A stretch of 64,000 nt of DNA from Burkholderiales bacterium (GTDB lineage: Bacteria; Pseudomonadota; Gammaproteobacteria; Burkholderiales; SG8-39), in the NCBI GenBank assembly GCA_035459025.1, contig DATHYT010000034.1, forward strand, positions 9,072 to 73,071, in the 5' to 3' direction. How positions within the stretch are numbered: position 1 is the stretch's first letter; every line of letters starts with the position of its first letter. Positions 43,694 to 61,731 of this stretch are shown here, one piece after another. Both the position numbers and the translations under genes were made by a program. Below the pieces are notes generated by a model. It was not told the origin of the DNA. It searched no databases and saw only the letters and a list, made by a program, of their open reading frames with translations.

Positions 43694-44261
43694 CGCGGTA
43701 GACGGCCAGGCTGCCGAGCAGGTTCGGCAGCACGCTCACCGGCCGCCCGCGGTGCAGCACCACGCGCTCGCGGATCTTCGCGCCGAGCTTCGCGCACAAG
43801 TCCTCGAAGTCGTGCAGCGTGCACAGGTGCACGTTCGGCGTGTTGTACCACTGGTGCGGCAGCTCGTCGGACACGGGCATCCTTCCCGCGAGCACCTGCA
43901 GCCGCGCCCGCCAGTGGCCGAAGTTAGGGAACGACACGATCGCCTCCTTGCCCACGCGCAGCATCTCGCGGGTGAGGAGCTCGATGCGGTGGATGGTCTG
44001 CAGCGTCTCGGACAGGATGACGTAGTCGAAGGAGCCGCCCTGAAAGAGCGCGAGGCCCGATTCCAGGTCGAGCTGCAGGACGTTGACGTCGTTCTTCAGG
44101 CAGGCGAGCACTTCGGCGTCGTCGATCTCCACGCCGTAGCCGTGCGCCTGGTGCTGCTCCCACAGGTGCCGCAGCAGCGAGCCGTCGCCGCAGCCTAGAT
44201 CGAGCACGCGCGAGCCCGGCGCCACCCACTGCGCGATCGCTTCGAGGTCGGGGCGCGTCAT
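43683..44261 (-). CDS. metW: methionine biosynthesis protein MetW
   Basis: ATG overlaps the metX stop (ATGA). [34 protein letters not shown]. Confidence 0.92.
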
Positions 44262-45379
44262 AGGTCGATGCTGTCGAAGTAGGCGGCGAGCGCGCCGTGA
44301 TAGCGCGGGTCCTCGAGCAGGAACGCGTCGTGCCCGCCGGGGGCGTCGAGCTCGAGGTAGGAGACGATGCGCCGGTTGTCGAGCAGCGCTTTCACCATGG
44401 CGCGCGAGCGCGCCGGCGCGAAGCGCCAGTCGGACTTGAACGAGACGACGAGAAACGCCGCCCGGGCACGCTCGAAGGACTTCGCCAGGTCGCCGCCGAA
44501 GTCGCCCGCCGGGTCGTAGTAGTCGAGCGCCTTGGTGATCCGCAGGTAGGTGTTGGCGTCGAAGTACGTCGAGAACTTGTCGCCCTGGTACCGCAGGTAG
44601 CTCTCGATCTCGAAGTCGATGTCGAAGTCGAAGCCGAGCGCGGCGCGGCGCAGCTGGCGCCCGAACTTCTCCATCATCGCGTCGTCCGAGAGGTAGGTGA
44701 TGTGGCCGATCATGCGCGCGATGCGCAGGCCCCGCGCCGGCACCACGCCGTGCTCGTAGTAGTGCCCGCCATGGAAATCGGGGTCGGTGACGATGGCCTG
44801 GCGCGCCACCTCGTTGAAGGCGATGTTCTGCGCCGAGAGCTTGGGCGTCGAGGCGATGACGAGCGAGTGGCCGATCCGCTCGGGGTACGCGAGCGCCCAC
44901 TGCAGCGCCTGCATGGCGCCGAGCGACCCGCCGATCACCGCCGCGAAGCGCTCGATGCCGAGGTGGTCGGCGAGCCGCGCCTGCGCCGCCACCCAGTCCT
45001 CCACCGTGACCACCGGGAAGTCGGCGCCGTAGGGCTTGGCGGTCGCCGGGTTGACCGAGGTCGGGCCGGTGGAGCCGAAGCAGCCGCCGATGTAGTTGTT
45101 GCCGATGACGAAGAAGCGCTCGGTGTCGAGGGGCTTGCCGGGGCCGACGAGGTTGTCCCACCAGCCGACGTTCCCGGGATCATCGGCATAGGTGCCGGCG
45201 ACGTGGTGCGAGGCGTTGAGCGCGTGGCACACGAGCACCGCGTTGGAGCGCGCGGCGTTCAGCGTGCCGTAGGTCTCGTACATGAGCTCGAAGCGCGGGA
45301 TCTGGGCGCCGCTCCTGAACCGGAACGGCTCCTCGAATACCGCGCGCCTCGCCTCTACGATGCCGACCGAGCCGGCCAT
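44258..45379 (-). CDS. metX: homoserine O-acyltransferase MetX (probably the O-succinyl type in this lineage)
   Basis: [24 protein letters not shown] (nucleophile elbow), [16 protein letters not shown] upstream of ATG 45379. Confidence 0.92.
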
Positions 45380-45395
45380 CCCGCCTCCCAAACGC

Positions 45396-45432
45396 AAAAA
45401 GCCCGTTCAGCTTTCGCGAGAACGGGCTTTTT
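45396..45432 (-). terminator. bidirectional rho-independent terminator hairpin in the CoA-transferase/metX spacer
   Basis: AAAAA-GCCCGTTC-(11 nt)-GAACGGGC-TTTTT. On the minus strand it lies 69 nt after the CoA-transferase stop and 17 nt before the metX ATG. Confidence 0.65.
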
Positions 45433-45500
45433 CGCCGGTCTCTTTAGCGGCATTTGTAGAGCGCCCGCAAGCTGAACATCAAATCGGCGCTGGGACGCGA

Positions 45501-46706: not shown

Positions 46707-48431
46707 TCAGGCGTTGAGCTGCGCCAGAAGCTCGCGCGTCTTCGCCGAGTCGGTGGAGCGCAGCACCTTCTGCGCCAGCGGCTCGGCCGCGGCGAGGTCG
46801 GTACGCAGCACGCGCTCCTTGATCGCGAGCAGCTGCGCCGGGTGCATGGAGAAGTTGCGCAACCCGAAGCCGAGCAGCAGGCGCGTGAGCGCAGCATCGC
46901 CCGCCATCTCGCCGCACACCGCCACCGGCGTGCGCGCGCGCGCCGCGGCGTGGATCACCTGCGCCACCAGCTGCAGCACCGCGGGGTGCAGCGGATCGTA
47001 CAGGTGCGCCACCGCGTCGTCGGTGCGGTCGATGGCGAGCGTGTACTGGATCAGGTCGTTGGTGCCGAGCGAGAGGAAATCCAGCCGCTTGATGAACATG
47101 GGCAGCGCGAGCGCCGCCGCCGGAATCTCGATCATGGCGCCCACCTCGACGCCCTTGTCGTAGGGCTGGCGCCGCTCGTCGAGCTGCTGGCGCGCCTGGC
47201 CAATGAGCACCAGGGCCTGGTCGACCTCGTGCGCGTGCGCCACCATCGGAAGCAGGATCCTGACCTTGCCGTGGTGCGAGGCGCGCAGGATGGCGCGCAG
47301 CTGCGCAAGGAAAATGTGCGGCTCGGCGAGGCAGTAGCGGATGGCGCGCAGCCCCAGCGCCGGGTTGGGCATCGCCTCGATGTGGCCCGAAAGCGCCTTG
47401 TCGGCGCCGATATCGAGCGTGCGGATCACCACGGGCTTGCCCGCCATCTTGCGCGCCACCTCGCGGTAGGCCTCGAACTGCTCGTCCTCGCCCGGCAGGT
47501 CCTTGCGGTTCATGAACAGGAACTCGGTACGGAACAGGCCGATGCCCTGCGCCCCCGACTCGTGCACCTTGTCCAGGTCCTGCGGCAGCTCGATGTTGGC
47601 GAAAAGCTCGATCGCCGTGCCGTCGAGCGTGGCCGCCGGCGTGCTCTTCAGGCGCCCGAGCTTCTTCCTCTCCAGCTCGTGCTGCGACTGGCGCAGGCGG
47701 TACTCGGCAAGCACCAGGGGATCGGGGTCCACCACCAGCACGCCCTGGATGCCGTCCACGATCAGGAGCTCGCCCTCGCGGATCATGTGGCGCGCATGGT
47801 GCAGGCCGACCAGCGCCGGGATGTTGAGGCTGCGCGCGAGGATCGCGGTGTGCGAGGTGACGCCGCCGACGTCGGTGACGAAGCCGCCGTACTCGTGGCG
47901 CTTGAACAGCAGCATGTCGGCGGGCGAGAGGTCGTGCGCCACCACGATGAGCTTGTGCTCGTCGCTGAGCTTGGGCGCGAGCGGCGCGCGCTGGCCGATC
48001 AGCGCCTTCAGCACGCGCTCGACCACCTGCTGCACGTCGGCGCCGCGCTCGCGCAGGTAGGCGTCTTCGACCTGCGCGAACTGCTCTTCGAGCGTCTCCA
48101 TCTGCTGCACCAGCGCCCACTCGGCGTTGCAGCGGCGCTCGCGGATGATCTCGCGTGGCGCGTGCGACAGCGAGGAGTCCTCCAGCATCATGCGGTGCAG
48201 GCTGAGGAAGGCGCCGAACTCGGCCGGCGCGTCTGCCGGGATCTGGCTTTCGAGCTGGGCCAGCTCCTGCTTGGCGCGCGCGATGCCGGCGTCGAAGCGG
48301 AAGATCTCGCCCGCCACCGCGTGCGCCGGGACCTGGTAGTGCGCCACTTCGAGGCGTGCCGTGGACACGAGGTGCGCCTGGCCGATGGTGATGCCCGAGG
48401 TGACGCTCGAGCCGTGCAGAACGAAGTTCAC
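46707..48431 (-). CDS. ptsI: phosphoenolpyruvate-protein phosphotransferase (PTS Enzyme I)
   Basis: GTG 48431 lies 4 nt after the HPr stop. GGFVTDVGGVTSHTAILARSL (active His), GLFRTEFLF, SLGTNDLIQYTLA, CGEMAG. Confidence 0.92.
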   Translation of the reverse strand: MNFVLHGSSVTSGITIGQAHLVSTARLEVAHYQVPAHAVAGEIFRFDAGIARAKQELAQLESQIPADAPAEFGAFLSLHRMMLEDSSLSHAPREIIRERRCNAEWALVQQMETLEEQFAQVEDAYLRERGADVQQVVERVLKALIGQRAPLAPKLSDEHKLIVVAHDLSPADMLLFKRHEYGGFVTDVGGVTSHTAILARSLNIPALVGLHHARHMIREGELLIVDGIQGVLVVDPDPLVLAEYRLRQSQHELERKKLGRLKSTPAATLDGTAIELFANIELPQDLDKVHESGAQGIGLFRTEFLFMNRKDLPGEDEQFEAYREVARKMAGKPVVIRTLDIGADKALSGHIEAMPNPALGLRAIRYCLAEPHIFLAQLRAILRASHHGKVRILLPMVAHAHEVDQALVLIGQARQQLDERRQPYDKGVEVGAMIEIPAAALALPMFIKRLDFLSLGTNDLIQYTLAIDRTDDAVAHLYDPLHPAVLQLVAQVIHAAARARTPVAVCGEMAGDAALTRLLLGFGLRNFSMHPAQLLAIKERVLRTDLAAAEPLAQKVLRSTDSAKTRELLAQLNA

Positions 48432-48435
48432 CGTC

Positions 48436-48705
48436 CTACTCCCCCTCGCCGAACTTGCCGGCCACCAGCTCACGGATCGCCGCCAGCGCGGCCTCGGCGT
48501 CCGCGCCTTCGGCTTCCACCGTGAGCGCGGCGCCGCGCCCGGCGGCGAGCATCATGACGCCCATGATGCTCTTCGCGTTGACGCGCCGGCCGTTGCGCGT
48601 CAGCCAGACCTCGGCGGCGAAGCGGCTCGCCACCTGGGTCAGCTTGGCCGACGCGCGCGCGTGCAGCCCGAGCTTGTTGGTGACGGTGAGCTCAGCGCTT
48701 GGCAC
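48436..48705 (-). CDS. ptsH: HPr-family phosphocarrier protein
   Basis: 89 aa with the His15 motif NKLGLHARAS and the Ser46 motif NAKSIMGVM. Confidence 0.92.
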   Translation of the reverse strand: MPSAELTVTNKLGLHARASAKLTQVASRFAAEVWLTRNGRRVNAKSIMGVMMLAAGRGAALTVEAEGADAEAALAAIRELVAGKFGEGE

Positions 48706-50609: not shown

Positions 50610-50686
50610 GCGCCCGTAGCTCAGCGGATCAGAGTATTGGCCTCCGAAGCCAAGGGTCGTGGGTTCGAATCCCGCCGGGCGCGCCA
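50610..50686 (+). tRNA. tRNA-Arg (anticodon CCG)
   Basis: Hand-folded cloverleaf. Acceptor GCGCCCG/CGGGCGC, D-arm GCUC...GAGU, anticodon stem UUGGC/GCCAA with loop CU-CCG-AA, T-arm GUGGG-UUCGAAU-CCCGC, discriminator G, encoded CCA. 77 nt. Confidence 0.93.
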
Positions 50687-50697
50687 CACCCACGCCG

Positions 50698-51882
50698 ATG
50701 TTTGAGCTGAGCGACACCCAGAAGGCCCTGCAGCAAAGCGCGCGCGACCTGGCGAAAAGGAAGTTCGCGCCGCGCGCCGCCGAGATCGACCGCCGCGAAG
50801 AATACCCGTGGCACAACGTCGAGCTGCTGACGCAGGCCGGCTTCATGGGCATGACCATTCCCCAGGAGTACGGCGGCCAGGGGCTGGGCTACCTGGAGGC
50901 GGTGCTGGTGATCGAGGAAATGGCGCGGGTCTGCGGCGTCACGGGCCGCATCGTCGTCGAGGCCAACATGGGGGCCATCGGCGCCATCATGAAGTACGGC
51001 ACGCAGGCGCAAAAGACGCTGGCCGCGAAGCTGGTGCTGGCCGGGGACAAGCCGGCGATCTGCATCACCGAACCCGAGGCGGGCAGCGCGGCGACGCAGA
51101 TGAGCACACGGGCCGATCGCAAGGGCGGGCGCTACGTGCTGAACGGCCGCAAGCACTGGATCACCGGAGGCGGCGTCTCCAAGCTGCATCTGATCTTCGC
51201 GCGGGTGTTCGAGAACGGCGTGGAGCAGGGCATCGGCGGGTTCATTGCCGTGCGCGGCGAGGCCAGGGGCCTCGTCGTCGGCCGGCGCGAGCCGGCGATG
51301 GGCCTGCGCGGCATCCCGGAGTGCGAGATCCTGTTCGAGGACCTGGAGATACCGCTGGAGATGATGCTGGTGCCCCCCGAGGGAATCCGGCGTGGCTTCG
51401 CAGGACTGATGAACGCCTACAACGGCCAGCGCGTCGGCGCCGCCACGGTGGCGCTCGGCATCGCCGCCGGGGCCTACGAGCTGGCGCTCGAGTATGCGCA
51501 GACGCGCAAGCAGTTCGACCGACCGATCTGCGAGTTTCAGGGCCTGCAGTGGATTCTGGTCGACATGCACACGCAGCTGGCCGCCGCGCGTCTGCTGATC
51601 CACAAGGCCGCGGCGGGATCCGGCGACGGCTTTCCCGACATGACCGAGGCCGCCCAGGCCAAGGTGTTCGCCGCCGACATGGCGATCAAGGTCACCAACG
51701 ACGCCCTGCAGGTTTTCGGCGCGGCCGGCTATTCGCGCGAGCTGCCGCTCGAGCGCATGGTCCGGGATGCGCGCATGTTCACCATCGGCGGCGGCACGGC
51801 GCAGATCCTGCGCACCGTGATTGCCTCGCAGCTGCTCGGACGCAAGCTGCCGCAGACGCGCGACGGCTACAGGAATCTCTAG
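50698..51882 (+). CDS. acyl-CoA dehydrogenase-superfamily flavoprotein lacking both canonical catalytic Glu positions; probable 3-sulfinopropionyl-CoA desulfinase (Acd-like)
   Basis: ACAD fold (ITEPEAGSA, HWITGGG, ERMVRDARMF). The IYEGT position reads IGGGT (Gly365, 51790-92). The IVD/LCAD-type base position reads Gln244 (51427-29). Arg84 (50947-49) sits in VTGRIVVEAN. ATG 50698 lies 11 nt after the tRNA. Confidence 0.75.
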   Translation: MFELSDTQKALQQSARDLAKRKFAPRAAEIDRREEYPWHNVELLTQAGFMGMTIPQEYGGQGLGYLEAVLVIEEMARVCGVTGRIVVEANMGAIGAIMKYGTQAQKTLAAKLVLAGDKPAICITEPEAGSAATQMSTRADRKGGRYVLNGRKHWITGGGVSKLHLIFARVFENGVEQGIGGFIAVRGEARGLVVGRREPAMGLRGIPECEILFEDLEIPLEMMLVPPEGIRRGFAGLMNAYNGQRVGAATVALGIAAGAYELALEYAQTRKQFDRPICEFQGLQWILVDMHTQLAAARLLIHKAAAGSGDGFPDMTEAAQAKVFAADMAIKVTNDALQVFGAAGYSRELPLERMVRDARMFTIGGGTAQILRTVIASQLLGRKLPQTRDGYRNL

Positions 51883-53863: not shown

Positions 53864-55018
53864 TCACCAGCTCGTCTGCACCGGGTCGAAGCCGGCCTTG
53901 GTCAGCGCCGCGGCGCGCCGCTTCTGCCACGCTTCGACGAACGCCTTGTCGTCGGCGTACGAGCCCTTCTTCTGCTCGGCCCAGGCCGCCGTGAGCACCG
54001 TCTGGCGCTCGAGAAGCTTGTCGTTGTGCGCCTGCTCGGCGGCGCCCCACTTGCCCATTTCCTTCCAGAAGCGGATCGCGCCGTCGTGGAACGGGATCAC
54101 CCAGGCGAAGTTCTGCCGGTCGACCGCCCAGCCGGCGTTGCCCGGCGCGGCGCCCTTGTACATGTCGTAGGTCTCGACCATCGCCTTGGTCATGTTGTAG
54201 ACGAGATTCGCGTCCTGCGAGGCGTAGGTCATCAGGATCGGGTACGGATAGGTGGCCGATTCCGCGGGCTTGTCCTTCGACAGCTCCGCGCCCTCGGTGC
54301 CCATGAACGGGAAGAAGAACGGCGCCACCGCGTTCATGCGCGCCCAGCCTGCCTTGTCCTTGTGCGAAATGATCGGGTAGACGAGGCCGCGCGGCGACTT
54401 GGCGATCTGATAGGCCTTGCCCGAGATCGACGAGGTGAAGGCGGCGTCGACCTGGTTGTTGATGATGCCGTCCATCGCTGCACCGAAGCCGCCGAACTCG
54501 ACCTTGCGCACGTCGTCCCAGGTGAGGCCGGAGAAGGCGAGCATCGCGGTGATGTTCTGGTTGAGCGCCGGCGAGCCGATCACCCAGGCGACGCGCTTAC
54601 CCTTCAGGTCCGCGATGGTGCGCACGCCCGCATCGCCCGCAGCGACCACGGTCAGCACCTGGTCGGAGGTGTTCAGCATCAGTCCGCGCACCGGCTGCGG
54701 GCCCCAGCTCGGCGCGCCGAACTCGAACACGCCTTCCATGGCGAGGTAGGCTCCGCCCACTCCGTTGGCGGAGAATTGCACCTGACCCTCGCGAATCGGC
54801 AGGTTTCTCGACACGTCGTTCTTGCCCGGCAGCACCCTGAGGCTCACGTTGTACTTCTGCTTGAGCGCGTTGCCGATGGCGACGGCCTGGTTGTAGCCGC
54901 CCGAGCCGACGTCGTAGGCGCTCCAGGAAATCGTCGGCGGCAGCTTGACGTCGGCGTGCGCGGCGACGGAGAAAGCGAGCGTGGCGCCGAGCGCCGCGCG
55001 AAGCAAAGCGTGGGTCAT
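53864..55018 (-). CDS. TAXI-family TRAP transporter solute-binding protein
   Basis: GGAGGAGG SD upstream of ATG 55018. Signal peptide MTHALLRAALGATLAFSVAAHA. SGGYNQAVAIGNALKQ, LPGKNDVSRNLPIREGQVQFS. Confidence 0.85.
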   Translation of the reverse strand: MTHALLRAALGATLAFSVAAHADVKLPPTISWSAYDVGSGGYNQAVAIGNALKQKYNVSLRVLPGKNDVSRNLPIREGQVQFSANGVGGAYLAMEGVFEFGAPSWGPQPVRGLMLNTSDQVLTVVAAGDAGVRTIADLKGKRVAWVIGSPALNQNITAMLAFSGLTWDDVRKVEFGGFGAAMDGIINNQVDAAFTSSISGKAYQIAKSPRGLVYPIISHKDKAGWARMNAVAPFFFPFMGTEGAELSKDKPAESATYPYPILMTYASQDANLVYNMTKAMVETYDMYKGAAPGNAGWAVDRQNFAWVIPFHDGAIRFWKEMGKWGAAEQAHNDKLLERQTVLTAAWAEQKKGSYADDKAFVEAWQKRRAAALTKAGFDPVQTSW

Positions 55019-55077
55019 GATGCCGTCCTCCTCCAAGGTATGCCCACCGATGTTAACCGATTCCCCGGGGCGCTAGA

Positions 55078-55675: not shown

Positions 55676-57541
55676 TCAGGCGGCCAGCACCGCGCCGCCG
55701 CGCGCTGCGGGCGCCTGCAGCCAGCGCGCCACGTCGGCGACACCCTGCCCGGTGGTGGCGGCGGTGCTGAACACGGGAACGGCCGGGCCTTTCTTCAGCG
55801 CGAGCATGCCGAGCAGATCGCGCGCCGTGCGCTCCGCGCCCGCGAGGTCGGCCTTGTTGACGACGAACGCGTCGGCGATCTCCAGGATGCCCGCTTTCAG
55901 CGCCTGCACGTCGTCGCCCAGGCCCGGCGGGCAGACCACCAGGCGGGTCGCCGCGATGCTCGCGATCTCGACCTCGGATTGCCCCGCGCCGACCGTTTCC
56001 ACCAGCACGTAATCGAAGCGCGCGGCGTCGAGCAGCGCGACCACGCTGCGCGTGGCGCCGCTCACGCCGCCAGCGTGCCCGCGCGAGGCGAGCGAGCGGA
56101 TGTAGACCTCCTCGTGTCCCTGCACGTCGCCCATGCGGATGCGATCGCCGAGCAGCGCGCCGCCCGACACCGGGCTCGAGGGGTCCACCGCCACCACCGC
56201 GACGCTCGCGCCGGCCGCGAGCAGTTCCTTTGTGAGCGCGGCGAGCAGCGTGGACTTGCCCGCGCCGGGCGGGCCGGTGATGCCGATCACCCGGGCGTGA
56301 CCGCGATGCGCGGCAAGCTGCCGGCCGAGCGCCGCGCCCTCGGCGCTGCCGTTCTCGATTTCGCTGATGGCGCGCGCGATTGCGCGGCGCTCGCGCGCCA
56401 GCACGCGGTCTGCGAGGCTCGAGCGCGCCTGCAGCAGCTCGGCGTTGTGCTCGCCGAGCTGCGGCGGGGGCGCATAGGCCTGCGCCATGCCGTCGACGCG
56501 GATCGGGTTGCCGACGGCGCGGATCGCTGCGCCCCCGGCGTCGATCGCGACCAGCATGTCGCGTTCCTTTGCGAGCTCGGAGCCGAGCGCCTGCTCCAAC
56601 GTCTGGACCGGGGCGGCCACGACGCCGAGCGGCGCCAGGCGCGCCATCCACGACGCGGTGCTGCCGCCCTTGAAAAGCGGCACCAGCGCGGCGAGCACGG
56701 CGTCGCGGTTCTCGCGCCGCGCCGCCATGGTGGCGAAGCGCGCGTCCTGCACCCAGTCGGCGCGGCCGACCTCGCCGCAGAAACGCCGCCAGAACTCGTC
56801 GTGCGAAATGAACACCACCAGCCAGCCGTCGCTCGTCTCGAACACCTGCGCCGGGACGATGTACGGGTGCGCCGAGCGCGCCATGCGCTGCGCGCGCTCG
56901 CCCGCGTTGAGCCACGCCCCTGCCAGGTAATTCAGCTGCGAGAGCATTACGTCGTGCATCGAGACGTCGATCTGGCCGCCGCGGCCTTCGACGATCTTCG
57001 ATAGCAGCCCGAGCGCGCCCATCATGCCGGCGGAGTTGTCGACCGCCGAGTAGCCGGTCTTCGCGGGCGCGCCGCCGGGCTCGCCGGTGATCGCCATGAC
57101 GCCCGTGAGCGCCTGGATGACGTAGTCGTAGGCCGGGCGGTCGGCGTGGCTGCCTTCCAGGCCGTAGCCGGTGAGCGCAACGCAAACCAGCTTCGGGTTC
57201 GCGTCTTTCAGCGCCTCGTAGGTCAGGCCGAGCTTCCTGATCGCCGCGGGCCGCAGGTTGGTGACCAGGGCGTGCGCGCGGGCGGCGAGGCCGCGCAGCG
57301 CGGCGCGGCCATCGTCGCGCGCCAGGTCGAGCGCGACGCTCTTCTTGCTGCGGTTGAGGCTCGCGAAATAGGCGTTATGCCCGCCCACCTGGTGCGGGCT
57401 GACGCGCCGGCCGATGTCGCCCTCGGGCGGCTCGATCTTGATCACTTCGGCGCCCAGGTCGGCGAGCAGCATGCCGCAGTAGGGACCGGCGAGCATGTGG
57501 CCGACCTCCAGTACGACGATCCCCGAGAGCGGGCCGCTCAT
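55676..57541 (-). CDS. fusion protein: class III (CaiB/Frc-type) CoA-transferase (about aa 1-372) + MeaB/ArgK-type mutase-associated GTPase (about aa 373-621)
   Basis: One uninterrupted 621-codon ORF. GIVVLEVGHMLAGPYCG, catalytic Asp in RPAYDYVIQALTG, PQLGEHNAELL, then RAIARAISEIENG, P-loop GITGPPGAGKST (56249-56275), DPSSPVSGGALLGDRIRM, VETVGAGQSE, NKADL. ATG overlaps the stop of the B12 subunit (ATGA). Confidence 0.85.
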   Translation of the reverse strand: MSGPLSGIVVLEVGHMLAGPYCGMLLADLGAEVIKIEPPEGDIGRRVSPHQVGGHNAYFASLNRSKKSVALDLARDDGRAALRGLAARAHALVTNLRPAAIRKLGLTYEALKDANPKLVCVALTGYGLEGSHADRPAYDYVIQALTGVMAITGEPGGAPAKTGYSAVDNSAGMMGALGLLSKIVEGRGGQIDVSMHDVMLSQLNYLAGAWLNAGERAQRMARSAHPYIVPAQVFETSDGWLVVFISHDEFWRRFCGEVGRADWVQDARFATMAARRENRDAVLAALVPLFKGGSTASWMARLAPLGVVAAPVQTLEQALGSELAKERDMLVAIDAGGAAIRAVGNPIRVDGMAQAYAPPPQLGEHNAELLQARSSLADRVLARERRAIARAISEIENGSAEGAALGRQLAAHRGHARVIGITGPPGAGKSTLLAALTKELLAAGASVAVVAVDPSSPVSGGALLGDRIRMGDVQGHEEVYIRSLASRGHAGGVSGATRSVVALLDAARFDYVLVETVGAGQSEVEIASIAATRLVVCPPGLGDDVQALKAGILEIADAFVVNKADLAGAERTARDLLGMLALKKGPAVPVFSTAATTGQGVADVARWLQAPAARGGAVLAA

Positions 57542-57951
57542 GCCAGCGCGCGCGCCAGCTCGTCGATCATCTGCGCGAGCGGCGCGTCGTTGGTGAACAC
57601 GCCCTTCACGCCTGCGGCGAGGAGCGCCTCGCGGTCCTGCGGCGGGATGGTGCCGCCGACGAATACCGGGATGTCGCCCGCGCCCGCGGCGCGCAGGCCC
57701 TCGAGCACCTCGCAGGACAGCGCCTGGTGGCTCCCCGAGAGGATGGAAAGGCCCACGGCGGCGACATCCTCGTCGAGCGCCACGCGCACGATGAAATCGG
57801 GCGACTTGCGCAGGCCCGTGTAGATCACCTCCGCCCCGGCGTCGCGCAGCGCGAGCGCGATCACCTTGGCGCCCGCGTCGTGCCCATCGAGGCCGGGCTT
57901 GGCGACGAGGATCCGCTTGCCCGCGAGGGGCCCTGCGGCGGGCGCGCTCAT
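57538..57951 (-). CDS. cobalamin-binding small subunit of a split acyl-CoA mutase
   Basis: 137 aa. DxHxxG motif in KPGLDGHDAGAKV, GLSILSGSH, VFVGGTIP. ATG 57951 overlaps the large-subunit stop (ATGA). The rest of the 764-aa track ORF is a shadow frame. Confidence 0.9.
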   Translation of the reverse strand: MSAPAAGPLAGKRILVAKPGLDGHDAGAKVIALALRDAGAEVIYTGLRKSPDFIVRVALDEDVAAVGLSILSGSHQALSCEVLEGLRAAGAGDIPVFVGGTIPPQDREALLAAGVKGVFTNDAPLAQMIDELARALA

Positions 57952-59528
57952 AGCCGCACCGGCTCCTGGAACTCGCCCCAGCAGCGCTTGAGGCGCGCGA
58001 CCATCTCGCCCACGGTGGCGTAGGCGTGGCAGCACTCGACGAGCAGCGGCATCAGGTTCTCCTTGTCGTCGGCGGCCGCGGCCTCGAGCGCATCGAGCGC
58101 CCGCCCCGCGCGCGCCGCGTCGCGCCGCTGCTTCACGGCGGCGTGCTTGTCCAGCACGCGCGCGGCCGTGCCCGGGTCGAGGCGGAACACCTCGCCGAAG
58201 CTCTGCGCCTGCCCTTCGCGCCGGTAGCGGTTCATGCCGACCACCACGCGCTCGCCGCGGTCGGTCGCGTCCTTCTTCTCGCGGGCGCGCAACGCGATGC
58301 GGCGCTGCAGCCAGCCGTCCTCGATCGCCTTCACCACGCCGCCGTAGGCGTCGATCTCGCCCATCGCCTGGCGCATGCCTTCCTCCATGCGGTCGGTGAG
58401 CCACTCGACGTAGTAGCTGCCGCCGAGCGGATCCACGGTCGCCGCGACGCCGCTTTCGTGCTGCACGATCTGCTGCGTGCGCAATGCGAGCTCGGCGGAG
58501 AACTCGGTCGGGATCTGGAAGGCCTCGTCGTAGGCGCAGGTGAAAATCGACTGCGCGCCGCCGAGCACCGCGGCGAGGTTCTCGATCGCCACGCGCACGA
58601 TGTTGTTGTAGGGCTGCGCGGCGACGAGCGAGGAGCCGCCGCACACCACGCCGAAGCGAAAGTGCAGCGCCTTCTCGTCGGTAACGCCGTAGCGGCTGCG
58701 CAGCAGCTGCGCCCACAGGCGGCGCCCGGCGCGGAACTTGCACGCCTCCTCGAACAGGTCCATGTGCACGTAGAAGAAGAACGACAGCCGCCGCGCGAAC
58801 TTCGCCACGTCGCCGCCCCGGCGGATGAGCTCGTCCACGTAGGCGAGGCCGTTGGCGAGCGTGTAGGCCATCTCCTCCACCGCCGTGCAGCCCGCGTCGC
58901 GCACGTGCGCCCCGGCGATCGAGATCGCGTTGAAGCGCGGCGTCACCTCGTTCGCGTAGAGCACCGAGTCGGCGATCAGGCGCATCGACGGCCGCACCGG
59001 GAAGATCCAGGTGCCGCGCGCGACGTACTCCTTCAGGATGTCGTTCTGGATGGTGCCGGTGAGCTTGGCGCGCGGCACGCCCTGCTTGTCGGCCGCGGCG
59101 AGGTACATCGCGTAGATGATCGCCGCCGTGCCGTTGATGGTGAACGAGGTGGAGATCGCGCCGAGGTCGATGCCGTCGAACAGGGTCTCCATCTCCGAGA
59201 GCGAGAACAGCGACACGCCCACCTTGCCGACCTCCGGCCGCGCCATGGGGTCGTCGGGGTCGTAGCCGCATTGCGTGGGCAGGTCGAGCGCGACCGAGAG
59301 CCCGGTCTGCCCCTGCTCGAGCAGGAACCGGTAGCGCTGGTTGGACGTCTCCGCGGAGCCGAAGCCCGAGTACTGGCGGATGGTCCAGGGCCGCCCGCGG
59401 TAGCCGTCGGCGAAGATGCCGCGCGTATACGGATAGACGCCCGGCGCGCTGGGCGCGGCGGCCATCTCCTCGCGCACCACCACGGGCACCTCGATTCCCG
59501 AGGGCGTCGTTACGCGCGCGTCGCTCAT
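57948..59528 (-). CDS. acyl-CoA mutase large (substrate-binding TIM-barrel) subunit, divergent methylmalonyl-CoA-mutase family member
   Basis: PYTRGI, RPWTIRQYSGFGS, GLSVALDLPTQCGYD, GTIQNDILKEYVARGTW, PYNNIVRVAIE, LRTQQIVQHESG. Several family-invariant motifs are replaced (see findings). Confidence 0.88.
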   Translation of the reverse strand: MSDARVTTPSGIEVPVVVREEMAAAPSAPGVYPYTRGIFADGYRGRPWTIRQYSGFGSAETSNQRYRFLLEQGQTGLSVALDLPTQCGYDPDDPMARPEVGKVGVSLFSLSEMETLFDGIDLGAISTSFTINGTAAIIYAMYLAAADKQGVPRAKLTGTIQNDILKEYVARGTWIFPVRPSMRLIADSVLYANEVTPRFNAISIAGAHVRDAGCTAVEEMAYTLANGLAYVDELIRRGGDVAKFARRLSFFFYVHMDLFEEACKFRAGRRLWAQLLRSRYGVTDEKALHFRFGVVCGGSSLVAAQPYNNIVRVAIENLAAVLGGAQSIFTCAYDEAFQIPTEFSAELALRTQQIVQHESGVAATVDPLGGSYYVEWLTDRMEEGMRQAMGEIDAYGGVVKAIEDGWLQRRIALRAREKKDATDRGERVVVGMNRYRREGQAQSFGEVFRLDPGTAARVLDKHAAVKQRRDAARAGRALDALEAAAADDKENLMPLLVECCHAYATVGEMVARLKRCWGEFQEPVRL

Positions 59529-60268
59529 CGGCGCGCCCCGATTGCCCTGGCGGTGCGCTGCAGCGCCTCGGCGAGGGGCTTGAGCGCGGCCTCGATGCGG
59601 TGCGCGGGTCCGGCGACCACCACGGCGTAGAGCTCGCCGTCGATGCGCACCGGGGCGCCGAGCGCGTGCACGTCGGCGACGTTCTCGCCGCGCGTCGCGT
59701 ACCAGCCGCGCTTCGCGCCCGCCGCGAGGTCCTTTTCCAGCAGCTCGCGCCGCACGAGCGTGTTGCGCGTGACGCGCGCGAGCTTGAGCGTGTCGAGGAG
59801 CGCGGCGCGCTCGGCCGGCGGCAGCGCGCCAAGCAGTGCCTTGCCCGCCGCGCTCGAGTGCAGCGGCTTGCGGTCGCCGGGCTGTGCGCTGTAGCGGATC
59901 GAGTGCGGGGACTCGACGACGTTGAGGTACACGACCTCGGTGCCGCTCCTCTTGCCGAAAACGATCGTCTCGCCGGTGGCCCTGCCGAGCGCCTCGAGAA
60001 GCGGTGTTACGCGCTCGAGCATCGGATCGTGCTCGGCCACCGCGCGCGCCTTCTGCAGCCAGCGCAGCGTGGGGTACCAGCCCTTGCGCAGGCCGAGCTC
60101 GTACAGGTACCCGCGAAGCTCCAGGGTGCGCAGCAGCGCGTAGCAGGCAGACACCGGGATCGCGAGCCGGCGCGCGAGCTCGGCGATGCCGAGCGGCTCG
60201 CCCGCGGTGGCGAAGGTCTCCAGGATCTGCAGCGTGCGGTCGGCGCTCTTGACGGTCGACATGTTCAC
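59525..60268 (-). CDS. IclR-family transcriptional regulator
   Basis: SADRTLQILETFA...LGIAELARRLAIPVSACYALLRTLE (wHTH) plus an IclR effector domain. Start GTG 60268 or ATG 60262. The stop overlaps the mutase ATG (ATGA). Confidence 0.88.
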   Translation of the reverse strand: MNMSTVKSADRTLQILETFATAGEPLGIAELARRLAIPVSACYALLRTLELRGYLYELGLRKGWYPTLRWLQKARAVAEHDPMLERVTPLLEALGRATGETIVFGKRSGTEVVYLNVVESPHSIRYSAQPGDRKPLHSSAAGKALLGALPPAERAALLDTLKLARVTRNTLVRRELLEKDLAAGAKRGWYATRGENVADVHALGAPVRIDGELYAVVVAGPAHRIEAALKPLAEALQRTARAIGARR

Positions 60269-60330: not shown

Positions 60331-61731
60331 TCAGCCCGCCAGCGGCGGGCGGCGCTTCCAGGCCTGCGTTTCCTGCTCGAACGCGTGCGCGAGCTGCAGC
60401 ACCCCGAAGTCATCGCGATAGCGCCCGATGACCTGCAGGCCGACGGGCAGCCCCGCCGGGGTGAAGCCCGCGGGCACCGAGATCGCCGGGTGGCTGGCGA
60501 TGGTGATGTAGTAGCAGCTCTTCATCCAGTCGAGATAGTTCGTCAGCTTCACGCCGGCGATCTCGGTCGGGTACTCGGTCTCGACCGGGAAGGGCGGCAG
60601 CTGGCTCACCGGCGCGAGCAGGAACTCGTAGGTCTCCAGGAACGCGCGCAGGCGCTGGTAGAGCTCGGTGCGCAGCACTTCGGCGCGCGCGATCTTCGCG
60701 CCGTCGAGCGCAAGCCCCTGCTCGATGTTCCAGATCACCGTGGCCTTCAGCTCGGCGCGGTGCGTCTTCAAGTACCGCGCGTAGCGCAGGGCGAAGGACA
60801 CCGCGCGCAGCGTCTCGAAGGCTTCCGTGGCGCCGCTGAAATCGGGGCAGGCTTCTTCGACGATGCAGCCGAGGTCCTGGAACACCCTGCGCTGCGCTTC
60901 CAGCACTGCGCTCACCGCGGGCTCCACCGGCAAGCCGCCGAAGTCTTTCGTCCACGCCATGCGCACTTTCTTGAAAGAGCGCTTGAGCGGCTTGGCGAAG
61001 ATCGATCCCGGCTCGGCGATCGACACCGGCGCGCGCCGGTCGGGCCCCGCCATGGCGGAGAGCAGGAAGGCGGCGTCTTCCACCGTGCGCGCGACCGGTC
61101 CGAGCACCGACTGGGTGTCCCAGGCGTTCGCCGCGGGGTAGGAAGGCACGCGGCCCGGCGTCGGGCGGAAGCCGACGACGTTGCAGTAGTTGCCGGGGTT
61201 CCGCAGGCTCGCGGCGAGGTCCGAGCCGTCGGCGAACGGCAGCATGCCGCAAGCGACCGCGGCCGCGGCGCCGCCCGAGGAGCCGCCCGCGGTCTTGGAA
61301 GGGTCGTAGGGATTGCGCGTCGCGCCGAACACCTTGTTGAAGGTGTTGCTGCCGGCGCCGAATTCCGGCGTGTTGGTCTTGCCCAGCGTGATCGCGCCCG
61401 CAGCCTTCAGGCGCTCGACCAGCAGCGCGTCTGCAGCCGGGACGTTGTCCTTGAAGACGAGCGATCCCATGGTGGTGCGGACGCCCTTCGTCGGCAGCAG
61501 GTCCTTGTAGGCGATGGGCAGGCCGGCAAGCGGCGGCTTCTTGCCTTTCTGGCGGTCCAGGGCCTTCGCTTCCTTCAGCGCCTGCTCGGGCAGGAAGGTG
61601 ACGATCGCGTTCACCTTGGGGTTCACGCGCTCGATCCGGGCGATGAAAGCCTGCATCACTTCTGTGGCGGAGAGCTTGCGCGCGTGGAGAAGGCGGGCGA
61701 GCTGGCGCGCGGGCGTATAGGGGATGTCCAT
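60331..61731 (-). CDS. amidase-signature family amidase
   Basis: GLPIAYKDLL, GKTNTPEFGAGSNT, AGGSSGGAAAAVA (Ser-cisSer-Lys signature). 466 aa. Confidence 0.88.
   Translation of the reverse strand: MDIPYTPARQLARLLHARKLSATEVMQAFIARIERVNPKVNAIVTFLPEQALKEAKALDRQKGKKPPLAGLPIAYKDLLPTKGVRTTMGSLVFKDNVPAADALLVERLKAAGAITLGKTNTPEFGAGSNTFNKVFGATRNPYDPSKTAGGSSGGAAAAVACGMLPFADGSDLAASLRNPGNYCNVVGFRPTPGRVPSYPAANAWDTQSVLGPVARTVEDAAFLLSAMAGPDRRAPVSIAEPGSIFAKPLKRSFKKVRMAWTKDFGGLPVEPAVSAVLEAQRRVFQDLGCIVEEACPDFSGATEAFETLRAVSFALRYARYLKTHRAELKATVIWNIEQGLALDGAKIARAEVLRTELYQRLRAFLETYEFLLAPVSQLPPFPVETEYPTEIAGVKLTNYLDWMKSCYYITIASHPAISVPAGFTPAGLPVGLQVIGRYRDDFGVLQLAHAFEQETQAWKRRPPLAG

Follow-up and report, generated by a model that had tools for sequence, protein, structure and literature searches.

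To our knowledge, the acyl-CoA mutase specificities resolved so far number only about six, and the pathways that they opened are those of propionate, valine/polyketide, ethylmalonyl-CoA, methyl tert-butyl ether and pivalate metabolism. How does the enzyme encoded in a 64,000-nucleotide stretch of DNA from a Burkholderiales bacterium (contig DATHYT010000034.1; the whole stretch is hereafter called the window) compare with them? The window encodes a split B12-dependent acyl-CoA mutase in a four-gene operon, and this mutase represents a branch of the B12 acyl-CoA mutases that is real, widespread and still uncharacterized, with a rebuilt substrate pocket. Literature searches found no description of the clade, and its homologues carry the public names "methylmalonyl-CoA mutase" or "methylmalonyl-CoA mutase family protein".

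Methylmalonyl-CoA mutase (MCM), with solved structures from P. shermanii (1REQ), human (MMUT, 2XIJ) and M. tuberculosis (6OXC), resembles the window mutase in fold family, in its DxHxxG B12 domain and in having a MeaB-type chaperone partner, and the residues Tyr89/Arg207, Gln197, His244 and Asp369/Glu370 are common to both. MCM is a fused chain, whereas the window enzyme consists of split subunits; the two are 48-49% identical and are separated by six pocket changes and 16 other fixed differences. Unlike MCM, the window mutase sits in a type of operon with a family III CoA-transferase, an IclR regulator and, in relatives, a crotonase. The split layout is like that of 2-hydroxyisobutyryl-CoA mutase (HCM; HcmAB, 4R3U) and of isobutyryl-CoA mutase (ICM)/IcmF (4XC6), in which the large and small subunits are about 530-560 aa and about 135 aa long. 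In IcmF, a G-protein chaperone is likewise covalently fused to a pathway component, but there the partner is the mutase; the window chaperone, which matches IcmF residues 184-394, is found at the C-terminus of the CoA-transferase and is without the C-terminal arm.

The closest operon analogue is E. coli sbm-ygfD-ygfG-ygfH (scpA-argK-scpB-scpC), the same four functions of which are found in most relatives of the window operon. The window itself does not contain this gene set, as it has no crotonase and encodes CoA-transferase and MeaB as a single protein. We take Sbm to be a canonical fused MCM, and YgfH presumably belongs to a CoA-transferase family other than family III, unlike the family III CoA-transferase of the window. 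The closest functional analogue of the system proposed here is IaaL and IaaGH, the phenylsuccinyl-CoA transferase and benzylmalonyl-CoA mutase of the Aromatoleum aromaticum indoleacetate pathway, which are followed by a decarboxylating dehydrogenase (PMC8360864). They likewise comprise a split B12 mutase and a family III CoA-transferase, and act on a succinyl/malonyl-CoA with a bulky hydrophobic substituent; the likeness is drawn by function, not by sequence. Literature searches found no named dicarboxylyl-CoA mutases beyond IaaGH. A hydantoinase-like gene, the IaaB ligase and the IaaF dehydrogenase are not among the recurring neighbours of 80 loci related to the window operon, although the acyl-CoA dehydrogenases present there were not checked for IaaF orthology.

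The split mutase and its place in the family

The mutase is encoded by two overlapping genes:

57948-59528, (-) strand: acyl-CoA mutase large (substrate-binding, TIM-barrel) subunit, 526 aa; PF01642, TIGR00641
57538-57951, (-) strand: mutase small subunit, cobalamin-binding domain, 137 aa; PF02310, TIGR00640

The original prediction of a split B12 acyl-CoA mutase is borne out by Pfam and NCBIfam matches of both subunits above curated cut-offs. The large subunit matches PF01642 (MM_CoA_mutase) with 636.2 bits over profile positions 2-512 of 512, and TIGR00641 with 637.5 bits against a cut-off of 303.8; the small subunit scores 69 bits with PF02310 and 135.3 bits with TIGR00640 (cut-off 57.45). 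The small subunit is an ordinary B12 domain, as had been proposed: it carries KPGLDGHDAGAKV, its DGHDAG is the DxHxxG motif of the His-on type, and the SILSG and VGG motifs are present.

The large subunit falls short of the curated models for MCM and IcmF. It scores 563.2 bits with the MCM equivalog NF006944 against a cut-off of 876, and addition of the small subunit (105.2 bits) gives about 668 bits, still below the cut-off. The IcmF equivalog gives 261 bits against 1500, and no NCBIfam model for either ethylmalonyl-CoA mutase (ECM) or pivalyl-CoA mutase (PCM) matched the large subunit. The solved chains aligned by phmmer were HCM 4r3u_A, human MCM 2xij_A/8gju_J, M. tuberculosis MCM 6oxc_A and P. 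shermanii MCM 1req_A. The best bit score in the Protein Data Bank (PDB) is that of HcmA 4r3u_A (469 bits), the MCM beta chain matches weakly (92 bits), and barrel identity to solved MCM and HCM is 47-49% (48-49% to the three MCMs). Relatedness was judged from identities together with signature tables, and the characterized enzymes covered were MCM from three species, HCM, and ICM-type signatures. Within that scope the proposal of a clade apart from the characterized mutases holds, for the window protein clusters with no solved or curated enzyme.

Substitutions in the substrate pocket

Five motifs in the large subunit had been singled out in the original prediction, and each motif and codon coordinate was reproduced:

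59370-59372, (-) strand: codon of Tyr53 in TIRQYSGF (aa 49-56)
59016-59018, (-) strand: codon of Arg171 in KEYVARGTW (aa 166-174)
58908-58910, (-) strand: codon of Ala207 in GAH (aa 206-208)
58635-58658, (-) strand: RFGVVCGG (aa 291-298)
58536-58550, (-) strand: SIFTC (aa 327-331)

The phmmer alignments to the solved chains are almost gap-free through the barrel, and they place RFGVVCGG at R-x-H-x-Q-T-S/A-G, SIFTC at SLHTN, and GAH at GYH, as the original prediction had it. With the numbering of P. shermanii MCM, the residues of the window protein align as follows:

Y53 with Tyr89
R171 with Arg207
A207 with Tyr243
H208 with His244
G293 with His328
V295 with Gln330
C296 with Thr331
F329 with His364
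C331 with Asn366
E335 with Glu370

By this alignment the Tyr and Arg of the substrate-carboxylate pair are retained, as anticipated, and the rest of the pocket has been rebuilt. The large subunit keeps the equivalents of Tyr89, Gly91, Asp118, Gln197, Asn198, Arg207, His244, Asp369 and Glu370, and carries the pocket substitutions Y243A, H328G, Q330V, T331C, H364F and N366C. Further clade-specific changes are F117L, M165F, S241A, E247D and L374I. In MCM, Tyr89, Arg207 and His244 presumably bind the substrate, and Gln330, Asn366 and Glu370 are assumed here to surround the deoxyadenosine ribose. The signatures of the non-carboxylate mutases are not present: the ICM-type enzymes have Phe/Gln at the Tyr89/Arg207 sites, where the window protein has Tyr/Arg, and at the sites of the HCM signature Ile90/Asp117/Gln208 (I/D/Q in 4r3u_A) it has Tyr/Ala/Arg. 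HCM and ICM keep the canonical HxQT and HTN motifs, both of which are replaced in the window clade.

The pocket changes run from polar to hydrophobic, and two of them replace a large residue by a small one (Tyr243 to Ala and His328 to Gly). Because of this, the sequence suggests a partly enlarged and more hydrophobic pocket that may have space for an extra alkyl or aryl group.

Conservation of the pocket and its variability across the family

The substituted residues are fixed throughout the clade. Among the best 120 protein-database matches listed, which are 75-95% identical to the window protein and span Betaproteobacteria, Alphaproteobacteria and Gammaproteobacteria, the motifs KE[YF]VARGTW, IS[IV]AGAH and Q-S-[IV]-F-T-[CA] are found in all 120. 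In the alignment of the window protein with these homologues, Gly293, Val295, Cys296 and Phe329 are 100% conserved, and Cys331 is conserved in 93% and otherwise replaced by Ala. Since the substituted motifs are fixed across 120 homologues, the pocket residues represent neither drift nor pseudogene decay. Twenty-two positions are fixed both in the clade and in the canonical HQT/HN group (58 members) but differ between the two, and these include the six pocket residues, which are identical in the bacterial MCMs, human MCM and HCM compared. All family representatives of the YRYH/HQT/HN type differ from the window protein at the six pocket positions.

A scan of 185,579 genomes, one per species, confirmed 446 relatives, including Bradyrhizobium spp., Billgrantia endophytica and Pararhizobium haloflavum. 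Carriers in which the gene lies on a plasmid or chromid are Sulfitobacter dubius, Paraburkholderia largidicola and caribensis, Marinobacter sp. M3C and Diaphorobacter sp. HDW4B. When cluster representatives were searched exhaustively, the other 50%-identity cluster closest to the window protein proved to be 56% identical to it and to have the same signature (RTGVVCGG, SMFTAA, AGAH); clusters further off do not exceed 51% identity.

The replaced motifs had been described as family-invariant, which is correct for the characterized enzymes checked (MCM from three species, HCM and ICM-type) but not for the family as a whole. In a survey of the 150 nearest 50%-identity cluster representatives (P0121-P0270), 124 of them full-length, Gly91, Asp118, Gln197, Asn198, Asp369 and Glu370 are near-invariant, being conserved in 135-142 representatives. 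By comparison, His328, Gln330 and His364 are canonical in only 82-85 of the 150, Tyr243 in 103, and Asn366 in 61. A complete MCM-type signature is present in 36 of the 124 full-length representatives and an ICM- or HCM-type signature in a few; a further 37 retain Tyr89 and Arg207 together with other residues at 328/330/364/366. Because the motifs vary in this way, the window clade is only one among many that are unassigned. Non-canonical residues at 243/328/330/364/366 are the rule in the nearest 50%-identity clusters, occurring in most of them, and many retain the Tyr89/Arg207 pair.

The operon and its relatives

The two mutase genes are enclosed by a regulator gene and a fusion gene:

59525-60268, (-) strand: IclR-family transcription regulator, first gene of the operon, its stop overlapping the mutase start (ATGA)
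55676-57541, (-) strand: family III (CaiB/BaiF) CoA-transferase-MeaB fusion, 621 aa; PF02515 372 bits, PF03308 245.6 bits

The window operon thus reads IclR, large subunit, small subunit and CoA-transferase-MeaB fusion on the (-) strand, with all four genes joined by ATGA overlaps. For comparison, open reading frames (ORFs) were called at 80 related loci (L001-L080), clustered and rechecked by tblastn; 61 loci had enough flanking sequence, and among these the mutase operon is conserved. The neighbours of the mutase were recovered as follows:

B12 small subunit: 59 of 61 loci
Family III CoA-transferase: 57 of 61 loci
Crotonase-fold gene: 52 of 61 loci, its end within about 90 bp of the mutase start
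MeaB: 51 of 61 loci
IclR regulator: 44 of 61 loci

The conserved order is IclR, a non-hydratase crotonase, large subunit, small subunit, family III CoA-transferase and MeaB, often with an organic-acid transporter. The same gene order is found in the annotated isolates Sulfitobacter dubius, Paraburkholderia largidicola, Marinobacter sp. M3C and Diaphorobacter sp. HDW4B. The operon is followed by a tripartite ATP-independent periplasmic (TRAP) transporter of the TAXI type in Sulfitobacter, by DctPQM in Paraburkholderia, and by TctC in Diaphorobacter. In Marinobacter sp. M3C the operon lies on a plasmid between insertion sequence elements, and the gene directly after MeaB encodes a cob(I)yrinic acid a,c-diamide adenosyltransferase (L083 12227-12796). 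No further enzyme is generally conserved beside the operon in the 61 well-flanked loci, and the module seems complete in itself, covering uptake, activation with CoA, rearrangement and a single crotonase-fold step.

The crotonase keeps the first catalytic Glu of enoyl-CoA hydratase (GGGAE), but the second is replaced by Gln (GFVQG) clade-wide, and it is therefore unlikely to be a hydratase. A W-V-H-D-D-H-W motif is also conserved at the C-terminus of this crotonase-fold protein, whose gene lies directly before that of the mutase (e.g. L070 9159-9941).

In the fusion protein, residues 1-372 form the CoA-transferase, which covers PF02515 profile positions 1-366 of 366, and residues from about 373 to 621 form the MeaB-type G-protein chaperone. 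The CoA-transferase part is far below every NCBIfam equivalog cut-off, e.g. succinate-glutarate with 250 bits versus 750. The MeaB part has the GPPGAGKST and NKAD motifs and scores 255.1 bits with TIGR00750 (cut-off 240.75); it is without the last ~60 residues of stand-alone MeaBs, its Pfam match spanning positions 2-229 of 273. The missing ~60-residue C-terminal part is, we assume, the MeaB dimerization arm. Family III CoA-transferases are known as obligate interlocked dimers. It is conceivable that the transferase supplies the dimer interface for the fused MeaB and would therefore be held at the mutase. The fusion recurs in five independent loci from metagenome-assembled genomes (L002, L003, L006, L009 and L010) and elsewhere is two genes; literature searches found no description of it.

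The desulfinase, amidase, AhpD-like and TAXI transporter genes of the window were considered as conserved partners of the operon and rejected, since they are present only in the nearest relatives L001, L002 and L006. At Rfam gathering thresholds there is no cobalamin riboswitch in the window.

Transporters and the class of substrate

A transporter pair encoded near the operon in a separate transcription unit could serve the pathway:

53864-55036, (-) strand: TAXI-family TRAP solute-binding protein; TIGR02122, 202 bits
51879-53849, (-) strand: fused TRAP permease (DctQM type), partner of the TAXI protein; PF06808, 332 bits

The TAXI protein is a candidate receptor for the substrate of the operon, with which it may be associated. 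The TAXI-TRAP genes directly after MeaB in Sulfitobacter dubius are non-orthologous, and that TAXI protein shows no detectable similarity to its counterpart in the window. More can be said of the operon DctP proteins, for which PDB 4MCO is the best or the sole strong match. The operon DctP of Bradyrhizobium scores 418 bits against PDB 4MCO/4MEV (Rfer_1840), and P0273, which is 95% identical to it, is 58% identical to 4MCO in a Foldseek fold search; for the Paraburkholderia operon DctP, 4MCO is the only strong PDB match. The ligand in 4MCO is presumably malonate, but two reviews do not list it; the argument made here is drawn from genomic context instead. Homologues 63-66% identical to the Bradyrhizobium DctP are encoded in GntR-DctPQM-malonyl-CoA decarboxylase-AMP-ligase operons of three isolates, and homologues 67-76% identical are encoded inside or beside the mutase operon. 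Because the two contexts interleave in sequence similarity, the DctP ligands of mutase and malonate operons should be alike. Malonyl-CoA itself cannot undergo a 1,2-shift, and a C2-substituted malonate is therefore the simplest reading. The malonate operons with an Rfer_1840-like DctP at their head are those at L088 9001-14909, L090 8001-13831 and L091 4941-10926, and the hosts of these TRAP-type malonate operons are Azospirillum canadense, Azospirillum sp. sgz301742 and Roseixanthobacter pseudopolyaromaticivorans.

The best matches of the CoA-transferase are succinate-glutarate, succinyl-CoA:mesaconate and oxalate CoA-transferases, SUGCT, and hydroxymethylglutarate transferases. Gene context, namely the family III CoA-transferase, the carboxylate transporters and the DctP subfamily shared with malonate operons, independently favours a dicarboxylate. 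The Tyr89/Arg207 pair is kept in the window protein, whereas the non-carboxylate mutases replace it (Phe/Gln in ICM-type enzymes, Ile/Gln in HCM). Carboxylate-binding pair, CoA-transferase kinship and DctP context all point to a dicarboxylate, which is the probable substrate class.

Proposed function and alternative explanations

What reaction might such an enzyme catalyze? The sequence evidence would fit an adenosylcobalamin (AdoCbl)-dependent acyl-CoA mutase that acts on the CoA ester of a small malonate or succinate with an alkyl substituent, within an operon that probably degrades a short, branched acid of this dicarboxylic type, and we give this reading about an even chance of being right. 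In line with an AdoCbl enzyme are the MeaB of the operon, the adenosyltransferase in the Marinobacter operon, the His-on B12 motif and the retained core residues. We infer from the evidence above that the enzyme is catalytically competent and that its substrate is carboxylated, and likewise the nature of the substituent and the direction of flux.

In the proposed mechanism, a short dicarboxylic acid would be imported by TAXI-TRAP in the window and by DctPQM, TctC or a major facilitator superfamily transporter in relatives, and the family III CoA-transferase would turn it into the mono-CoA thioester. MeaB, in the window fused to the transferase, would gate AdoCbl loading and protect the B12 cofactor. 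Homolysis of the Co-C bond would yield the 5'-deoxyadenosyl radical, which would take a hydrogen from the substrate; the COSCoA group would then shift between neighbouring carbons in a radical 1,2-shift before the hydrogen is given back, so that a substituted malonyl-CoA and the matching substituted succinyl-CoA would be interconverted. The free carboxylate would be held by the Tyr53/Arg171 pair, and the wall formed with Y243A, H328G, Q330V, T331C, H364F, N366C and M165F may accommodate an additional alkyl or aryl substituent for which MCM has no place. In most relatives the product could be decarboxylated, as by E. coli YgfG or ECHDC1, or epimerized by the crotonase. ECHDC1 is a crotonase-fold ethyl/methylmalonyl-CoA decarboxylase (PMC8473548). 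Alternatively, the product may pass its CoA to the next substrate molecule through the transferase, a hand-back route that would explain why the crotonase is dispensable in the window lineage.

Several points weigh against this reading. The enlarged hydrophobic pocket is a reading of residue chemistry: Tyr243 of MCM presumably shields the radical and excludes the 2S epimer, and we take His328, Gln330 and Asn366 to lie near the 5'-deoxyadenosine ribose and the substrate. The ligand argument needs a substituted malonate, since unsubstituted malonyl-CoA cannot be rearranged by a mutase; a DctP of the malonate type is limited to about 10-12 loci, the others using unrelated transporters, and the TAXI protein of the window has no characterized close relative in the comparison made. 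Finally, the crotonase is missing from the operon in the window and in its nearest relatives L001, L002, L005 and L006, and no crotonase gene is detectable in the 64 kb of the window; any crotonase step must therefore be dispensable or encoded elsewhere.

A narrower and doubtful version of the proposal would make the rearrangement new to the family. What is rearranged would be a malonyl- or succinyl-CoA that bears one more alkyl group, on the carbon that in MCM faces Tyr243, and the mutase with its coupled CoA-transferase would form a closed, CoA-recycling acid-to-acid isomerase. Examples might be the interconversion of dimethylmalonyl-CoA, which is quaternary (2,2-disubstituted), with methylsuccinyl-CoA, or the rearrangement of larger alkyl- or aryl-succinyl-CoAs. 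In such a system the fused transferase would replace the dimerization arm of the chaperone.

A directional sub-case of the favoured reading is a succinate-type decarboxylation module like that of E. coli sbm-ygfD-ygfG-ygfH, in which a substituted succinate would be converted, via a substituted malonyl-CoA and the crotonase, into a (branched) acyl-CoA destined for beta-oxidation or the valine pathway (e.g. methylsuccinate to butyryl-CoA or isobutyryl-CoA). The relatives match the E. coli operon in all four functions (mutase, MeaB, crotonase and CoA-transferase), conservation extends to no other pathway enzyme, and the crotonase, with GGGAE kept and GFVQG clade-wide, is no canonical hydratase; crotonase-fold alkylmalonyl-CoA decarboxylases exist (PMC8473548). 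However, the crotonase is not close to any curated decarboxylase model, the DctP subfamily indicates a malonate-type rather than a succinate-type imported acid, and it is hard to square an essential decarboxylation with a window lineage that lost the crotonase but kept the rest, which leaves this direction unlikely, if credible. An ordinary (2R)-methylmalonyl-CoA mutase of propionate/methylmalonate metabolism is improbable. It would agree with the presence of the Tyr89, Arg207, His244 and Gln197 equivalents and with the public annotation of the homologues, methylmalonate would suit a malonate-type DctP, and CoA-transferase and mutase suffice to convert methylmalonate into succinate, possibly in a closed cycle. 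It is contradicted by the failed MCM equivalog (563 bits, 668 with the small subunit), by the identity of only 48-49% to three MCMs, and by the 22 fixed differences from the canonical group, six of them in the pocket. Moreover, a separate housekeeping MCM is presumably present in Paraburkholderia, Bradyrhizobium and Sulfitobacter.

Could the enzyme instead act on a non-carboxylated substrate, as do ICM, HCM and PCM, or be a paralogue without catalytic activity, like the MCM beta chain? HCM indeed gives the highest PDB score (469 bits), and replacement of Gln330 and Asn366, presumed neighbours of deoxyadenosine, could impair radical chemistry. Against these readings stand the Tyr89/Arg207 pair, retained in place of Phe/Gln in ICM-type enzymes or Ile/Gln with Asp117 in HCM, the retention of Glu370, Asp369, His244 and Gln197, the strict conservation of the pocket residues, the upkeep of MeaB and of a B12 domain dedicated to the enzyme, together with an adenosyltransferase in one operon, and the weak match of the MCM beta chain (92 bits). 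Both are highly improbable. Harder still to credit is recognition of a sulfinate or sulfonate by the Tyr/Arg pair, with a substrate such as 3-sulfino- or 3-sulfopropionyl-CoA or a homologue. At a distance of 3.8 kb the window has a gene that matches the 3-sulfinopropanoyl-CoA desulfinase equivalog (669.7 bits against a cut-off of 600), the family III CoA-transferase Act adjoins the desulfinase in Variovorax (PMC6370202), and marine alphaproteobacterial loci have sulfopyruvate-decarboxylase-like thiamine diphosphate (ThDP) subunits with a gene resembling 3-hydroxyisobutyrate dehydrogenase (HIBADH) or sulfolactaldehyde reductase. But outside the window the desulfinase occurs only in L006, the closest relative (90% identical), the best acyl-CoA dehydrogenase match elsewhere being about 30%; the ThDP proteins, from one related group of marine loci, are below sulfopyruvate decarboxylase cut-offs; and 3-sulfinopropionyl-CoA requires no rearrangement before desulfination.

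Other features of the window and related loci

Directly upstream of the IclR gene lies an amidase gene, common only to the closest relatives L001 and L006, and its membership in the operon is uncertain:

60331-61731, (-) strand: amidase; NF005686, 517 bits against a cut-off of 465

At lower coordinates than the permease gene, other features of the (-) and (+) strands are:

50659-51882, (+) strand: acyl-CoA dehydrogenase-fold gene, divergent from the TAXI-TRAP genes, with the desulfinase equivalog match (669.7 bits, cut-off 600)
50610-50686, (+) strand: tRNA-Arg (anticodon CCG), by Rfam and ARAGORN
46707-48473, (-) strand: phosphoenolpyruvate-utilizing enzyme, 588 aa
45501-46694, (-) strand: second, stand-alone family III CoA-transferase, 397 aa, about 32% identical to that of the operon and adjoining the preceding gene
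45423-45500, (-) strand: SAM-II (SAM_alpha) riboswitch, 44.3 bits against a gathering threshold of 36
44258-45397, (-) strand: alpha/beta-hydrolase gene directly downstream of the riboswitch

The desulfinase-like gene is common only to L006 (90% identical); its ORF start as listed overlaps the tRNA gene, and the true start is probably about 25 codons later. The alpha/beta-hydrolase gene could encode the homoserine acyltransferase of methionine synthesis. In 13 loci of marine Alphaproteobacteria (L020, L021, L029, L033, L038, L040, L043, L049, L054, L055, L059, L065 and L074) a 2-oxoglutarate oxygenase of the isopenicillin N synthase family is encoded just upstream of the mutase operon, and downstream are split ThDP decarboxylase subunits (sulfopyruvate-decarboxylase-like, below cut-off) and an HIBADH-like dehydrogenase. 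The same oxygenase type is also found near the Diaphorobacter operon (L084).

Implications for the acyl-CoA mutase family

The clade is a candidate new specificity within a known enzyme family. Interest in it is tempered by the number of non-canonical clades, and there is no sign of chemistry beyond the known 1,2-acyl shift. At the same time, the functional space of the family is largely unmapped, most near relatives of the known mutases having non-canonical pockets. The substrate is directly testable, because a compact operon with regulator, transporter, activating enzyme and chaperone is present in culturable Paraburkholderia, Sulfitobacter, Marinobacter and Diaphorobacter. New carbon-skeleton mutases are also wanted for making branched acids. 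The clade replaces residues that we take to enclose the 5'-deoxyadenosyl radical and to shield intermediates, and a structure could reveal to what extent the reaction depends on such surroundings.

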